Source: Candidatus Thermosaccharophagus tengchongensis (GTDB lineage: Bacteria > Armatimonadota > Fervidibacteria > Fervidibacterales > Thermosaccharophagaceae). Taken from it: a stretch of DNA of 64,000 nt. A program made the position numbers. Below, piece by piece: positions 1-6,000 of this stretch. Numbering within the stretch: the first letter of the stretch is position 1; each line of letters begins with the position of its first letter. Location: NCBI GenBank assembly GCA_032161105.1, contig JAVHTD010000016.1; one strand, written 5' to 3'.

Positions 1-3000
1 GGCGGTGGCTATGTCTCGTTTGAGCCTGCACGCCACGGAAGACGACTCTCATTTGAGTTTGATGTCACAGCCGATGGCTCTTACGAATTTGCACTCGGCT
101 TGCTAACTAACACGATGTGCGGTCAGTTTAGGGCGTTCGTTGATGGGCGACCGCTCGGAAGGGCATTTAGCGGGAGGACAAAGGCAGAGTATGCATGGCA
201 TCAAATCGGCTTGGGAGTTTCGCAGCCTCTGCGGTCTGGCAAGCACAGGCTCACGATTGAATCGCTCGATGGCAAACCGCTCTTCATTGATTACATCGTC
301 ATACAACCAGCCATCGCCGGCTATCAGGCTGAGCGCATGTTTATCATTTCGTCCTCTCGCCAAACGAAGATAAGGAAGCGCTTCGGCGCAGAGCCGCCAT
401 GGCGCGGCGGTGCATACCTGAAGCTTGAGGCTAAGTCAACCGGTGAGCATGCGAAGTTGCTCTTACCGGTCTTCAAGTCGGGCATCTACAACATGTCAGC
501 GACAATCGCATGCATGCCGAGCGGCGGAAAATTTGAGGTGCTGGTTGACGGCGTCAAAGTCGGGAAGCCAGTTGACTCCTATTCCGAAGCTGAGGCGCAA
601 AGAGAGGTTGAACTCGGTAGCGTGAAATTGAGGCGTGGCTCGCACGAAGTGATGCTTCATGTCATCGGGAAAAACACCGCCTCGGGTGGATACACAATCG
701 GCTGCGATGAGTTTGAGTTGGAGCTGGTCAAGGCACTGCTTGAACTGGAGCAAACCGCCATTGCATTGCTGGCGTGCCTCATTGCCCTTTTGATCTTTAC
801 AGGCATTCTCCTCAAGCGGCGGCACCGCCGGCTGCGCCAAAATGCGAATGAGCAACCGCCACTCGGAACCTAATTGCTCATTTTCGTAAGCGCTGCTGAT
901 TGTGCTTCGGCTCACTGAAGTCGCCCTTACTTCGGCTGTCTTGTAACCAGCCTGATGAACGCATTTACGATCTCGGCATCAAGCTGCTTTCCAGCTTGCT
1001 CTTTGAGTTGCTTCAATGCCTCATCTCGGCTGAGTGCAGGTCTGTGCGGGCGCGGGCATATGAACGCATCATAGACATCGCAAACAGCTATGACCATAGC
1101 CAACCTCGGTATCTGCGTGCCAACAAGTTTGTCCGGATACCCACTTCCATCAAGCCTCTCGGTGTGATGCCTTATGGCTGGAGCGAATTCGCTCAGTTGC
1201 GGTATGAGCTTTATGAACTGCTCGGAGTAAATTGGGAACTGCTCAACAATTTGCCTCTCGGCTCTTGTGAGCTTCCCCTGCTTATTGAGTATGCTGTCCG
1301 GGACGGTTATCAAGCCAATTTCGTGTCCGAGAGCAGCCATGGAAAAGCGCTGCGCATACGAAGGGTCATACCCCAGCTCAATTAGCAACTGCTTGCAAAG
1401 TTGCGAAACCCTTCTTGCATGCTCACGCCTGCCGATGAGGCGCTGCTCATTCTGTGCCACAATCGTTGTGAGGATTCTCTCAAGCTGTGTCTGACTGGAA
1501 ATGGCATAAAGCCTTGAATTGTCAATAGCAATGGCTGCATAGCTTGCCAGTGCTGTAGCGAGTTTCAAATCCTCCTCATCAAACACTTTGTCAGGCGAGA
1601 GGCTGTTGGCGCATAGAACCCCGATGACTCTCCCGCGAGCTTGCAGTGGCACAGCCATTGATGAAACAATCTGCTCACGATGAAGTAAGCCCTTTAACTC
1701 CGGGTCAACCCTTGTTGGCGAGATGATTATAGCCCTGCCCTCCTTTGCCACCCTGCCGGCAATTCCCTCGCCAAGATTTAAAGCTGTTGAAGCCACAATG
1801 TTCTCATCAAGCCCATGGTGAACTGCTATGCGCAAAGAGCCTGTAGCCTCATCAACCAGCATGATTGAACCGCTGTCAGCGCCGAGGAGATTTATAGCGG
1901 CATTCATAACCATGTTCAGGATGGCGCTAATGTCAACTTCTGAGGTAACAGCAAGCCCAACTTTATACAGCTTGTCAAGCTGCCGTAGCCTCCTATCCAC
2001 CTCCTCGGAGAGGCGCTCATGAATTGGTTCAATGCCACTGCCGCAATATGGACATACATCCCAATCGGTGCTCAACCTGCGCTCACATCTCGGGCATACA
2101 CTCACAAGCTGCAAATGACATCTCGGGCAATATACGAAGTCCCTTTCAAGTATCGGATAGCCGCAGCGCTTGCACCTTCTTCTCTCCTCCTCCGGGGCAG
2201 CTAATACAGCAAACACCTCTTCAACTGTCGTCCTTCCTTCGGCGAGCAGCCTGAGGCTGCTCTCACGCAGTGTCATCATTCCCTCACTCACAGCGGCAGA
2301 TTCAATTTCCCCCTCGGGGGCATCACGCATTATCAGCGTCCGTATGGTTGAGGTCACGGGCAGTATTTCAAACAGCGCCGTCCTACCGTAATATCCGGTC
2401 ATGTCGCAATATGCGCATCCCTGCCCACGCATGAAATTGAATTTGCTTGCCTCGGTGAGCGTCAGCCCGAGTGCTCTCAGTTCTACATCAGTAGGCGTAT
2501 ACGGCTGCGAGCAGCGCGGGCAGTTCAATCTGACGAGACGCTGTGAAACAACCCCAAGGAGTGATGATGCGAGCAGGAATGGCTGAATCCCCAAGTCCCT
2601 CATCCTCGGCACGGCTGCCGCTGCTGTGTTTGCATGCAGCGTTGAGAGGACTAAATGACCCGTCATGGCAGCCCTGATGGCGAGCTCAGCGGTTTCGGCA
2701 TCCCTTATCTCACCGACAAGGATTATGTCGGGGTCCTGCCTCAGCACACTCCTCAAAGCCGATGCGAATGTCAAACCTATCTCGGGGTGCATCTGTATTT
2801 GAGAGATGCCCGGTATCTCCTGCTCAACTGGCTCTTCAAGCGTGACAATGTTCCTTCTGCCGTTGTTCAACCATGTGACGCTCGCATACAGCGTTGTCGT
2901 CTTACCGCTTCCTGTCGGTCCCACGACGAGGATGATGCCGTGCGGTTGGCGAAGTAGATTCAGGTAAGTGTTGAGTTGCTGTTGTGTCATGCCGAGTGAT

Positions 3001-6000
3001 TCAAGCGAAAACAATTCCTCCTCCGGGCGGAGGAAGCGCAAGACTGCCTTCTCCCCATGGATTGTCGGTGATGTCGCCACACGCACATGATGCTGCTTAT
3101 CCTTTACTCTGAATCTGAAATGCCCATCCTGCGGCAAGCGTCTCTCTGCGACATTCATCTGTGACAGAACTTTTATCCGCCCGATGAGCGAAGTCTCCAC
3201 ACCCTTGGGCAACTCCGCGACGGTGTGCAGTATCCCATCAACGCGCATCCTGACGAGCACCTTATCCCTCTGAGGCTCAATGTGCACATCACTTGCATTT
3301 CTCTCAACAGCCCTCAAAAGCAGGTTGTTGAGAAGCCTGACCGTCGGAGCTGCTCTTATCTCCCTCGTCACATCCACGACCGGAGCTTCAGCTAATGTCT
3401 CAAGATCCTCTGTCACAGCTGCTGCCAGCTCGCTGCTCAATGGGTAATAGCGAGAGATGAGCTGTGACAAGACCGCGTATGAGGCCACGACAGGCTCAAC
3501 ATCCATTCCTGTGGCTGAGCGGACATCATCTATGGCGATAATGTTGCCCGGATCTGCCATCGCCAGAATGAGCTTATTGTCGCGCCTGCCCACCGGCATG
3601 ACGAGGTGCTTTCTTGCCATCTCGGGCGAAATTAACTTCACAGCTTCAACATCAATTGGGAACTTTGCGAGGTCAACCTTGCGCACGCCGTAGTATCGGC
3701 TCAGGATGTCAAGAATGACCTCTTCATCCTTAATGAAGCCGAGTTCGTGAAGGACAATCCCAAGGGGGCGATTTGAAATCCTCTGCTCCTCAAGAGCTAT
3801 CTCAAGCTGCTCCGGCGTTATGATCCCGCCATTAATGAGCAGTTCGCCAAGCCTCGGTTTGACTTTAGGTGCGCTCATCTGCAATCACTCCTTGCCTCCT
3901 CTTGCTTTACAGAGTTGCTTCACATCTTGCCATTCCCAAATCTTCTGCACAAGCATGCAATCAGCCATTCCGAAACGGACAAAACAATGCCCTTCACAGC
4001 AAGTGTTACTTCGCTTCACAGCAACGCAGCTTTATCCTTCAGCATGACGCAATGCCGCCTTGAGCTCACGCAAGAGCACCCGCATCAGCGAAGCGTTGTG
4101 TCGCCTTCCGCTGTAAATGGACTCGGTGAAAAGCTCAGCCATGTGCATGAATGCAGCATGCGCTTTGTCTGGCAATATGCCCTTTGCGTTCATTGCGTAT
4201 TCAATCGCCGTCTCGCTCGGCTTTCTCCGACGATAGCGCTTTGCGACAATCCTGCTCGCTCTATTAAACAACTTCACTGCTTCACCGCGAACGCTCTTTG
4301 CACCGCCTACAAACGGAATTTTGATCTGCGTGTGCATCATAACGAAGATGGAAAATGCCAACAGCGAGAGAAGCACGAGAGCAATTGAAATTGCCACATC
4401 GTGCCCCTCCCAGAGGAGTAAAAGCTTCTCTTTGAGACTGCCAAACCAATTGCCACCATCACTTTCGGCAACAAAACCCAATTGTCTTGGCGGCGGTATT
4501 GAATATCCCGGGGTGGCTTCCATAGGCACCCACCCAACCGGAGGAACATACACCTCTGCCCATGCGTGTGCATCTCTTTCTCTGACGATGAAGGAACGCC
4601 TTGCATCATCCCATTCGCCCATAACGAATCCGGTGGCAAGGCGCGCTGGTATCCCAACAACCCTGCACAGCAAAACCATAGCCGAGGCAAAGTGAGTGCA
4701 TATACCTCTCCTTGAGGAAGTGAGAAAGTAGATCACCGGGTCGCACTCATACGGTGGCAAGGGCGGTTTTTCATCGTATATGAATGTCCGCTTCAAATAC
4801 CTCCTTATAGCCTGCGCTTTTTCCCACGGAGTTGTAGCTCCGGCAGTCACCTGTCTGGCTATGCTCTTTAACTGCAGTTCAATTCCGGCCGGCACTTGCA
4901 GGTAGTGTGAAAGCCTTGCAATGTCTTCTCTTGTTAGCTCCTTCCATGCGACCTCGTGCATGCTGAAAATCTTGACCCGTGACCACACATTGTATGAGAA
5001 GCCCGGTGTGACGAGTCTCCTTGAGCGTATAGTTCCAGCTGAGTCAAAGCTGAGCCACTCAAGGTCGGCGTCAACTCGCACTGGCTCAAATATTGCCGGA
5101 AGGTATGCGAGCGTGCACCGCTCAACATGAAATGTCTGCTTAACCTGCTCTGTTTGTATGGAGTCATCTACACGGTCATCCGTTTGGTTCAGGATGAGTT
5201 CTTCACCCTTCTCCAAACACTTCGTGTGCCACTTCAGCCTTCTGCGCCATGAGCCATCTTTGTAATAGTCGTAAGTGCTCACCCTCCAATAGGCTGGCAC
5301 ATTGCATTCAACTCTTATAACGACCGGGTCCGAGAGCTCGCTTATTGGGTGGCGAAGCGAAATTGAGAATCCATAGAACGAGAGGATGCTATGGGCTTTG
5401 AAAAGGTATTTTGAGAGCTGCTCAGAAATGGCAAGCTCAATTTTTGAGAGTTGCGGTAATAACTCAAATGGGCGCATGAAAGATGTGAGGGAATATGAGA
5501 TGACGATTGCAAGCACAAGCACCCAACCGCTTAGTGAAAGGACGGTTCGTATGAGCGACCTGTAAAGCGCTCCCTCCCAACCCTGTATCTCAACCATTGA
5601 GGCAACGAAGCGCAGGTGAGCGCTCTGGAGAAGTGAAAACACCCCTGCAGCTAAGATGCCATACGGGATGAAAAAGAGCACAAAAGAGAGTGTCCGGCAA
5701 ACCGGCAGCATGAGCGTGTAGATGCACAGCCCGAGCAAGAGCAACAGTGAAAAGTCAATCGGGTCAATCAACTGCATGTGCTTTAAAGCGGCAAGCGTGA
5801 GTATGAATGCCATCAGTAGCGATATAGCATCCTGAACCGATATGGCGATGGAGCTATGTGGATGCACGATGAGTTGCCACAATGTGATGCCGAGCTCCCT
5901 CTTGAGATCCAAAATCAGAATGGCAAACGCGTAAACCAGGATAACGCCACTTAGCATCCTCCTCGGAAGGACATTGGTATGCACAAGGTAGAAGCTCACC

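Follow-up and report, generated by a model that had tools for sequence, protein, structure and literature searches.

A PilB-type ATPase fused to a GAF domain and an HD-GYP domain with replaced catalytic residues in Candidatus Thermosaccharophagus tengchongensis

Can one pilus motor protein both sense c-di-GMP and destroy it? The question is raised by a gene in the window, the 64,000-nucleotide stretch of contig JAVHTD010000016.1 (assembly GCA_032161105.1) that was analyzed here. An earlier note described its product as a type IV pilus extension ATPase fused to a c-di-GMP phosphodiesterase. The reading frame starts with an ATG at 3878 and ends with a stop codon at 927-929 on the minus strand, giving 983 aa; an alternative TTG start lies two codons upstream and would lengthen the product to 985 aa. 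A Pfam rerun returned the MshEN, T2SSE, DZR, GAF_2 and HD_5 domains in one chain, with the same boundaries as reported before (Table 1). In our reading, the fusion is an orphan paralogue of PilB in which the MshEN c-di-GMP motif is intact and which has an input module, composed of GAF and a dead HD-GYP domain, that is probably non-catalytic.

Table 1. Coordinates of the fused gene and its domains in the window.
Feature	Position	Strand	Description or evidence
Whole CDS, 983 aa	927..3878	(-)	MshEN - PilB/T2SSE ATPase - double zinc ribbon - helical linker - GAF - degenerate HD-GYP
MshEN_N c-di-GMP-binding motif region, aa 9-54	3717..3854	(-)	NF053729 and regular expression
MshEN (GSPII/T2SSE_N1), aa 63-148	3435..3692	(-)	Pfam PF05157, 1e-26; PDB sequence matches
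T2SSE ATPase (N2 + core), aa 176-556	2211..3353	(-)	Pfam PF00437, 9.6e-126; same coordinates in genome scan
Double zinc ribbon (4 x CxxC), aa 569-613	2040..2174	(-)	Pfam PF12773 (DZR), 1.5e-08
Linker, aa 617-647	1938..2030	(-)	Part of long predicted helix, AF2 secondary structure
GAF domain, aa 648-786	1521..1937	(-)	Pfam GAF_2, 2.2e-22; Foldseek GAF matches
HD-GYP domain, aa 804-970	969..1469	(-)	Pfam HD_5, 7.8e-35; residue tables; Foldseek 4mcw

An assembly artefact was ruled out by contigs from X1, X2 and X10, three hot-spring runs that belong to different studies, which span the ATPase/zinc-ribbon/GAF junction without indels, and by full-length copies of the fusion in other genomes (G003, G001 and G023). 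When aa 620-983 were searched among proteins of 540-1721 aa, five of the best 120 matches also carried PF05157 and PF00437, the same count as before, but the earlier total of 258 hits was not reproduced, the rerun giving 1435 at E<=0.001 (7999 candidates scored). These five relatives are 983-997 aa long, and their identity over aa 620-983 is 99% (P0152), 83% (P0153), 79% (P0154), 72% (P0002) and 67% (P0155). The fusion is present in all four genomes of its own genus, g1 (Fervidibacteria, Armatimonadota), and, as an insertion, in 1 of 18 genomes of the sister genus g2, where the copy was probably acquired laterally. The restriction to one genus-level lineage stated in the earlier note is thus nearly correct, the g2 copy being the exception.

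That note had also allowed for a neutral fusion of neighboring genes. We estimated dN/dS in the two pairs whose dS was not saturated (G000-G003 and G001-G002, respectively) and obtained values of 0.03-0.09 in every domain: 0.033 and 0.045 for the ATPase core, 0.083 and 0.047 for GAF, and 0.090 and 0.057 for HD-GYP. Every domain of the fusion is under purifying selection, and the 41 genomes searched yielded no pair of unfused orthologues; on these two results we reject neutrality.

The MshEN motif is defined as 53 residues comprising two tandem 24-residue motifs and a 5-residue spacer (Wang et al. 2016, PMC5013675). The presumed motif for binding c-di-GMP in the window's protein, flagged earlier as unchecked, scored above the NF053729 threshold (56.3 bits; cut-off, 38), and the four further fusion orthologues scanned scored 55-58 bits against the same cut-off. 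By regular expression, motif I of the window's protein fits the strict 24-residue pattern of that study. Its contact residues R, L, G, L, L and Q are kept in every full-length orthologue listed, and the turn glycine (Gly18 of MshE) is G in the window's protein only, being R or K in the orthologues. Motif II is divergent: 4 of the 8 full-length sequences tested matched the relaxed pattern, and the window's protein missed it, also by regular expression, at one hydrophobic position. In sequence, the N-terminal domain matches the N-terminal domains of PilF, PilB and MshE in the PDB.

The ATPase core looks apparently intact from its motifs. Walker A, Walker B and the His box were all found in the T2SSE domain by regular expression and are invariant among orthologues; a tetracysteine zinc motif of two CxxC pairs (aa 400-560) is separate from the four CxxC of the zinc ribbon, whose eight cysteines are all invariant in five orthologues. 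Proteins of the MshE/PilB/PilF group (V. cholerae MshE, 5HTL; T. thermophilus PilF) likewise have the MshEN motif, the tetracysteine zinc site and a T2SSE core. Unlike those proteins, the fused ATPase is encoded by an orphan gene without pilC or pilT neighbors. No pilus protein was found among the 16 neighboring ORFs scanned (window 100-29722), and the nearest neighbors are genes for a transglutaminase-like protein and a MoxR ATPase and an ORF of 428 aa that has no Pfam match. A canonical pilB-pilT-pilC set is located on C2, a gspE/pilB-pilC-pseudopilin-PilMN cluster on C3, and T2SSF genes on C2, C3, C5, C6, C13, C14 and C18. The three further full-length PilB-type genes mentioned before were located on C3, C2 and C12.

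The fused protein scored 575.2 bits against the PilB equivalog TIGR02538, below its cut-off of 675.65, and 546.9 bits against the GspE equivalog TIGR02533, below its cut-off of 630.25. It also evolves faster than canonical PilB, with 77% identity between G000 and G001 as compared with 96%. These scores and this rate, the distance of the gene from any PilC, pilin or PilM gene and the signaling role in EPS control that PMC5544727 ascribes to M. xanthus PilB are consistent with an ATPase of the signaling or secretion type that drives no pilus, turns the PilB scaffold to a different output and has GAF as its main sensor. We consider such an ATPase quite unlikely, since every ATPase motif and the zinc motif is intact and plain PilB proteins from Armatimonadota are the nearest relatives of the fused ATPase in the tree.

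The catalytic residues of the HD-GYP domain, also left unchecked in the earlier note, were compared in an alignment (A2) of the 5 fusion C-termini with 29 related GAF-HD-GYP proteins, using PmGH residue numbering. The HD-GYP fold and the GYP motif are present, as indicated by the HD_5 match (7.8e-35), the invariant GYP and Foldseek. Six positions are replaced in all five fusions (D183L, E185G, D222E, K225L/M, H250F and H277T/A/M), whereas all 29 relatives have D183, Y at 185, D222, K225, H250 and H277. The catalytic pair D183/K225 is therefore absent from every fusion, and the metal-ligand set (H189, H221, D222, H250, H276, H277 and D305) is incomplete, with 3 of the 7 core ligands lost in 5/5 fusions. 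Among 105 HD-GYP matches aligned pairwise by phmmer, E at D222 and F at H250 occurred in the five fusions only; both histidines of the HH pair were kept in all 100 non-fusion matches (99 GAF-HD-GYP proteins and P0069). Residues H189, H221, H276, D305, D308, K235, G237, G284-Y285-P286 and R314 are kept in the fusions, and position 317 is R, like in the relatives. The PmGH c-di-GMP contact residues K235, Y285 and R314 and position 317 are invariant across the fusion clade. The D222E exchange is a conservative change.

According to the mutant data excerpted from the PmGH study (PMC4159591), alanine substitution of H189, H221, D222, H250, H276 or H277 essentially abolished activity, D183A and K225A abolished it, and mutants of GYP, R314 and K317 had little effect. 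All of the six replaced positions except E185 thus have inactivating alanine mutants in PmGH in these data. We infer that the HD-GYP domain of the fusion no longer hydrolyses c-di-GMP. These residues do not support the proposal that it destroys c-di-GMP and forms a self-resetting switch; because key catalytic residues are lost, sensing or regulation, and not degradation of the signal, is the most likely role of the extra part of the fusion.

An active phosphodiesterase, perhaps with a Glu-for-Asp metal site, that drains the c-di-GMP pool to which the motor's own MshEN domain responds appears very unlikely, although the HD_5 match, the retained GYP, R314/R317 and K235, the conservative nature of D222E and the purifying selection on the domain would all suit it. 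One metal site could survive because four ligands (H189, H221, H276 and D305) remain, and a section of the Galperin & Chou preprint (10.1101/2021.11.05.467447) states that RpfG proteins without 'a key His' can still cleave c-di-GMP, so RpfG-type enzymes may tolerate one missing histidine. Nevertheless, D183, K225, H250 and H277, each essential in the PmGH data cited, are non-equivalent in 5/5 fusions and invariant in 29/29 relatives; position 277 varies (T/A/M) between orthologues, as expected for a disused site, and the five HD-GYP paralogues with complete motifs in the genome could do the hydrolysis. The same section describes the metals of PmGH as holding the ring oxygens of c-di-GMP, so metal loss could cost the fusion its c-di-GMP binding too.

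The AF2 model of the C-terminal module had a mean pLDDT of 83.3, and a predicted long helix (model residues 59-86) includes the linker and continues into the GAF domain. The best Foldseek match was 4mcw (GAF+HD-GYP; E 9e-21, 357 columns), then DvhD (9rbz) and PA4781 (4r8z, TM 0.78 on target); the GAF domain matched, for example, 5w10, the Lcd1 GAF domain with cAMP (TM 0.78 on target). The module is thus predicted to have a PmGH-type GAF/HD-GYP fold. PmGH (PDB 4MCW; Bellini et al., PMC4159591) also matches in sequence (E 5.9e-20) and shares GYP, R314 and K235 with the fusion, which differs in the six replaced residues and in the position of the module behind a motor ATPase. A precedent for a lost metal site is DvhD (PDB 9RBZ/9RC0; sequence E 1.5e-18, Foldseek rank 3), whose HD-GYP-like domain, as described in part of PMC13090378, is without metal ligands and binds but does not cleave c-di-GMP, its thermal stabilization being little or only partial at 70 and 230 uM c-di-GMP. 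In place of HD and HH, DvhD has SQ and M/N there, and the fusion has HE, F and HH[T/A/M]; four metal ligands remain, so the loss in the fusion is partial. In that account DvhD is a receptor in the membrane that controls a protease, and the fusion is a motor.

Through its GYP motif, Xanthomonas RpfG binds GGDEF proteins that are linked to PilZ and PilT/PilU. Such contacts would fit a C-terminal module that binds no nucleotide and dimerizes or docks proteins, e.g. a GGDEF protein or a pilus component, and so localizes or oligomerizes the ATPase. Inactive HD-GYP proteins are said to work by protein-protein interactions in part of the Galperin & Chou preprint (10.1101/2021.11.05.467447), HD-GYP domains dimerize according to a passage of PMC13090378, and the long helix predicted ahead of GAF resembles a dimerization stalk. 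However, no partner gene is nearby, and K235, Y285, R314 and position 317 are invariant in the fusions although dispensable for PmGH catalysis in the mutant data cited; contact residues retained after catalysis was lost fit ligand binding, and we regard a pure scaffold as unlikely.

The genome (97% complete) encodes five GGDEF and eight HD-GYP proteins, three of the latter with a degenerate HD motif, and no EAL or PilZ protein was found, so non-PilZ receptors are expected. We give an even chance to an accessory, orphan PilB-type extension ATPase whose activity is gated by small-molecule inputs at both ends of the chain. In such a protein, the HD-GYP domain would serve as a receptor or transducer, GAF would sense a second ligand, and the C-terminal module would control the ATPase hexamer via the zinc ribbon and helical linker. 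Because no PilC platform or pilin gene lies alongside, the fused ATPase would serve one of the genome's two pilus/secretion machines, whose genes lie elsewhere, or would be a signaling ATPase. A three-input motor is a bolder and rather doubtful extension: MshEN would provide high-affinity c-di-GMP sensing, the dead HD-GYP domain a metal-poor second site for c-di-GMP or pGpG, and GAF a site for a further metabolite or cyclic nucleotide, so that the pilus would extend only within a c-di-GMP concentration window. Equally doubtful is its wider form, in which degenerate HD-GYP domains (3/8 in this genome) would generally act as receptors for c-di-GMP, as a class of their own, in a PilZ-less, EAL-less hyperthermophile lineage.

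Working in cis, the gated accessory ATPase would be comparable to the DvhD receptor or to the action of FimX on PilB. According to a passage of PMC10333796, PilB is activated by FimX, a receptor with a degenerate EAL domain, and the fusion would share its principle with the FimX-(PilZ)-PilB systems of P. aeruginosa and Xanthomonas citri, where a phosphodiesterase domain for c-di-GMP that has degenerated serves as a PilB-controlling receptor. FimX is a separate protein with a degenerate GGDEF-EAL pair, whereas the fusion has a covalent, degenerate HD-GYP domain and does not belong to the FimX family; it would be an in-cis equivalent of FimX working in trans. Should the dead HD-GYP domain prove to be a receptor, the fusion would be the first pilus motor with a built-in degenerate phosphodiesterase regulator, a single-chain counterpart of FimX-PilB and, after DvhD, a second example of HD-GYP reuse as a receptor. 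Given its hot-spring origin, the protein should be stable and suited to structural work on how a C-terminal sensor gates the PilB hexamer. The case is also a corrective, in that an HD-GYP match alone need not mean c-di-GMP degradation.

As the earlier note had supposed, the papers searched contained no description of this architecture. Supplementary Table 4 of Wang et al. 2016 (PMC5013675) contains ATPases with a sensor fused at the C-terminus or the N-terminus, MshEN-T2SSE-cNMPbind, GAF-MshEN-T2SSE and REC-MshEN-T2SSE, as well as MshEN-HD-GYP-REC-DUF4388 without an ATPase; MshEN-T2SSE-zinc ribbon-GAF-HD-GYP is absent from it. C-terminal regulatory fusions to PilB recur: PilB-(zinc ribbon)-REC was found in 16 of the 38 long relatives scanned, with the regulatory domain behind the ATPase as in the fusion and often joined via the same double zinc ribbon. 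HD-GYP is combined with MshEN-T2SSE in P0069 from an Eremiobacterota MAG (MshEN-T2SSE-HD-GYP, a singleton among the best 120 matches, with M at the Lys225 position) and in P0039 from Brocadiales (HD-GYP x2-MshEN-T2SSE, with A at that position). Unlike the fusion, neither these two nor the PilB-REC proteins have a GAF domain, and their differing domain orders and lineages point to independent events.

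The gene is one minus-strand open reading frame (ORF) with the coordinates and the five Pfam domains described in the earlier note, and it encodes an MshEN domain, a PilB/T2SSE ATPase, a double zinc ribbon, a GAF domain and an HD-GYP domain in a single chain (P0001, hereafter the fusion). An alternative TTG start, two codons upstream of the ATG, would give a protein of 985 aa. The Walker A, Walker B, His box and tetracysteine zinc motifs were all found in the ATPase, which scored under the NCBIfam equivalog cut-offs for both PilB (575 versus 675.65) and GspE (547 versus 630.25). 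As had been reported, three other full-length PilB-type genes are present in the genome, which is 97% complete and comprises 2.74 Mb on 44 contigs. The ATPase/zinc-ribbon/GAF junction was spanned without insertions or deletions by contigs of three hot-spring metagenome runs from different studies, and most of the gene was recovered in 15 runs drawn from nine or more studies; the fusion is genuine and has been maintained. The sources of the sequences are hot-spring metagenomes only. A cultured Fervidibacter grows near 80 °C.

Locations of the fusion gene, its domains, its upstream neighbors and degenerate HD-GYP paralogues (G000, this genome; C7 and C10, its contigs)
Feature	Location	Strand	Remarks
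Fusion CDS	ATG at 3878, stop 927-929 (window)	-	983 aa
MshE-related c-di-GMP motif	aa 9-54		NCBIfam NF053729, 56.3 bits, cut-off 38
MshEN	aa 63-148		Pfam
T2SSE ATPase	aa 176-556		Pfam, 9.6e-126
DZR zinc ribbon	aa 569-613		Pfam
GAF_2	aa 648-786		Pfam
HD_5	aa 804-970		Pfam, 7.8e-35
MoxR AAA ATPase, 428-aa ORF without Pfam match, transglutaminase-like TgpA-type membrane protein	4032-8652 (window)	-	co-directional, directly upstream of the fusion
Degenerate HD-GYP paralogue	G000:C10:96519-97379	-	HN..IGL
Degenerate HD-GYP paralogue, REC-GAF-HD-GYP-like	G000:C7:40226-41710	+	YQ..IGL

The HD-GYP catalytic residues, left unchecked in the earlier note, were examined: the GYP motif and the c-di-GMP contacts are kept, but six active-site positions are replaced in all five fusions. 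The positions were read off an alignment (A2) of the five fusion C-termini and 29 related GAF-HD-GYP proteins, using the numbering of PmGH, a GAF-HD-GYP c-di-GMP phosphodiesterase (PDB 4mcw). The fusions have Leu at D183, Gly at E185, Glu at D222, Leu or Met at K225, Phe at H250 and Thr, Ala or Met at H277, where the 29 relatives have Asp, Tyr, Asp, Lys, His and His, respectively. Among 105 HD-GYP matches compared by pairwise alignment, Glu at 222 and Phe at 250 were exclusive to the five fusions, and both His of the HH pair were kept in 100 of the 100 non-fusion matches. The fusion retains H189, H221, H276, D305, D308, K235, G237, GYP, R314 and R317. A one-residue insertion after HH, suggested by a phmmer alignment to PDB 4mcw, was rejected because the spacing between position 250 and GYP (35 residues) equals that of a paralogue on contig C12, and because MAFFT and 100 pairwise alignments placed Thr, Ala or Met under H277 ungapped.

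In PmGH, Ala at H189, H221, D222, H250, H276 or H277 essentially abolished activity, as did D183A and K225A, and mutations of GYP, R314 and K317 are described as having little effect (Bellini et al., PMC4159591). The catalytic machinery of the fusion is thus largely gone, while the positions used by PmGH to contact c-di-GMP are kept. Residual or altered activity may persist, since RpfG proteins that lack one key His may retain activity (Galperin & Chou preprint, 10.1101/2021.11.05.467447) and D222E is a conservative replacement. The earlier note had read P0001 as a self-resetting pilus motor that both senses and destroys c-di-GMP; this receptor-motor-phosphodiesterase loop is unsupported, since its phosphodiesterase part appears to be inactive. 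We give an even chance to the best reading, in which the protein is an accessory PilB gated by sensors and its GAF/HD-GYP module is a non-catalytic input. DvhD is a described case of an HD-GYP-like domain that lacks metal ligands and serves as a c-di-GMP receptor (PMC13090378), and the separate protein FimX is one of a degenerate phosphodiesterase domain that controls PilB (PMC10333796).

Each 24-residue MshEN motif has six contact residues according to Wang et al. (PMC5013675). All six of motif I were conserved in every full-length orthologue examined; its structural turn Gly is Gly only in P0001 and Arg or Lys in the orthologues. Motif II is diverged, with Pro for Arg, Val/Thr and Ile/Val/Leu for the two Leu, and Arg for Gln. 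P0001 and four orthologues passed the NF053729 model at 55–58 bits, and c-di-GMP binding by the MshEN of the fusion is plausible. An AlphaFold2 model of aa 561–983 (mean pLDDT 83.3, zinc ribbon portion poorly defined) matched PmGH 4mcw over both domains (E 9e-21, 357 columns). The next structural matches were the HD-GYP-like receptor domain of DvhD (9rbz), PA4781 (4r8z) and GAF domains such as that of Lcd1 with cAMP; three class III cyclase domains are encoded in the genome. The homodimer prediction of aa 617–983 scored 0.16 against a mark of 0.42 and speaks neither for nor against dimerization.

The previously reported rarity of the architecture was reproduced, as MshEN and T2SSE accompanied only 5 of the best 120 matches to aa 620–983. 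A whole-protein search of 1.84 billion representatives showed the architecture to be shared by only one database protein (P0002) among the best 150. Two other PilB and HD-GYP fusions were met. P0069 (782 aa, from a MAG whose source name is Eremiobacterota) is MshEN-T2SSE-HD-GYP and lacks both GAF and zinc ribbon. It has KD as HD dyad and Met in place of K225, an NF053729 match was not found, and it is a singleton in a collection of 5.8 billion proteins. P0039 (1009 aa) carries tandem HD-GYP-type domains N-terminal to MshEN-T2SSE and belongs to a 14-member cluster with Brocadiales / Ca. Wunengus source names; its first HD-GYP domain keeps the metal ligands and has Ala at the Lys225 position, and the second is degenerate. 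Scanning genome contigs with generic GAF/zinc-ribbon patterns from the C-terminal alignment A1 yielded 80 unrelated GAF proteins (25–40% identity) and no orthologues.

The two-stretch matches of about 1000 aa were tandem T2SSE proteins. By this classification, 14 of 154 have two complete T2SSE domains and are covalent PilB dimers (P0003, P0004, P0006, P0007, P0009-P0011, P0015, P0018, P0022, P0023, P0027, P0042 and P0084). PilB-(zinc ribbon)-REC proteins made up 16 of the 38 long matches scanned, mostly joined via the same double zinc ribbon (P0019, P0047, P0050, P0052, P0056, P0060, P0078, P0089, P0100, P0103, P0107, P0113, P0128, P0146, P0147 and P0151). Supplementary Table 4 of Wang 2016 (PMC5013675) includes MshEN-T2SSE-cNMPbind, GAF-MshEN-T2SSE, REC-MshEN-T2SSE and MshEN-HD-GYP-REC-DUF4388; unlike the REC proteins found here, its REC on PilB is N-terminal only, and the architecture of the fusion is absent from it. 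Neither PilB nor T2SSE occurs in the text of the HD-GYP census preprint (Galperin & Chou), whose census tables could list the combination, and the terms HD-GYP, GAF and "fused" are absent from a 2024 review of PilB cofactors. Full-text literature searches on MshEN or T2SSE with HD-GYP, on PilB and HD-GYP in Armatimonadota, and on pili, c-di-GMP and PilB in Fervidibacter did not find a description of the fusion. As far as the literature searched extends, it is a conserved, undescribed object.

Among 41 related genomes, the fusion was present in all four of the host genus (g1; Fervidibacteria), in one of 18 of the sister genus g2 (G023, 74% identity), in neither of the two of g3 and in none of the 17 from other families of the phylum. 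Full-length g1 copies are those of this genome (G000), G003 (88%) and G001 (77%); in G002, the gene lies in two overlapping pieces, one of them running from contig base 3, and the source records that match in length carry a partial label. By source name, the orthologues come from MAGs of "Candidatus Fervidibacterota" or "Armatimonadota". In the two pairs whose dS was not saturated (G000–G003 and G001–G002), dN/dS was 0.033 and 0.045 in the ATPase core, 0.083 and 0.047 in GAF, and 0.090 and 0.057 in HD-GYP, respectively; no part of the fusion is in decay. A FastTree phylogeny built from 156 ATPase domains grouped all five fusions in one clade (support 100) with a plain 566-aa Armatimonadota PilB as sister (support 98). 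This clade fell among plain PilBs; with only 82–85 at the deeper nodes, the placement speaks no more than tentatively against descent of the PilB part from the PilB-zinc ribbon-REC clade.

The contig carrying the G023 fusion truly belongs to g2, its MurC neighbor being 81% identical to that of G004 (g2) and 46% to those of g1 genomes. The genes on either side are separated by about 64 nt in G004 (L118:1421-1485) and by 3.6 kb in G023 (L026:1165-4781), where the fusion lies between them, forming a clean occupied/empty site pair. Canonical PilB identity drops from 95–96% within g1 to 63–67% between g1 and g2; fusion copies share 77–88% within g1, and the G000 and G023 copies share 74%. Together, the identity pattern, the G023/G004 site and the absence from 17 of the 18 g2 genomes point to lateral acquisition of the G023 fusion as a self-contained unit. 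The transfer was not recent, since the G+C of this copy matches its flanks. Repeats around the insertion were short and at chance level only, and no mobile-element signature or recognizable ends were found. Origin by fusing neighboring genes was without support: the C-terminal module has its closest paralogue in a REC-GAF-HD-GYP protein (36% identity) encoded some 10 kb away from an orphan PilB on C12, and unrelated genes, including an integrase, intervene.

The genome encodes five GGDEF and eight HD-GYP genes, and no EAL or PilZ. Motifs are complete in five of the HD-GYP genes, and the C10 and C7 paralogues are degenerate like the fusion; judged by their motifs, three of the eight HD-GYP domains of this PilZ-less, EAL-less genome look non-catalytic. 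Canonical pilB-pilT-pilC is on C2, a gspE/pilB-pilC-pseudopilin-T2SSK-PilMN cluster is on C3, and the fourth PilB, on C12, is an orphan. So is the fusion gene: the 16 other ORFs scanned around it (window 100–29722) include no pilus genes. The transglutaminase gene adjoins the fusion in G003 and G001 too, not in G023. A promoter/terminator scan of window 700–4300 yielded no more matches than shuffled sequence did, and none in the upstream gap of 153 nt. Contigs of one metatranscriptome run (X16), 95–99% alike, span window 685–1977 and 3204–3374; this cover does not show transcription and is only a weak hint of expression, and the stretches that lack cover carry no weight.

Farther along the window, three paralogous DUF6785 + DUF6784 membrane proteins of 655–704 aa are encoded within 12 kb (9595–11709, plus strand; 13003–15066, plus; 19401–21368, minus), interspersed with a URO-D-like gene, an argininosuccinate lyase gene and a DUF6807 gene. 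A 216-aa ORF (17681–18331, minus strand), adjoining a 340-aa ORF without a Pfam match, carries a doubled CXXCH (multihaem cytochrome) motif at its end.
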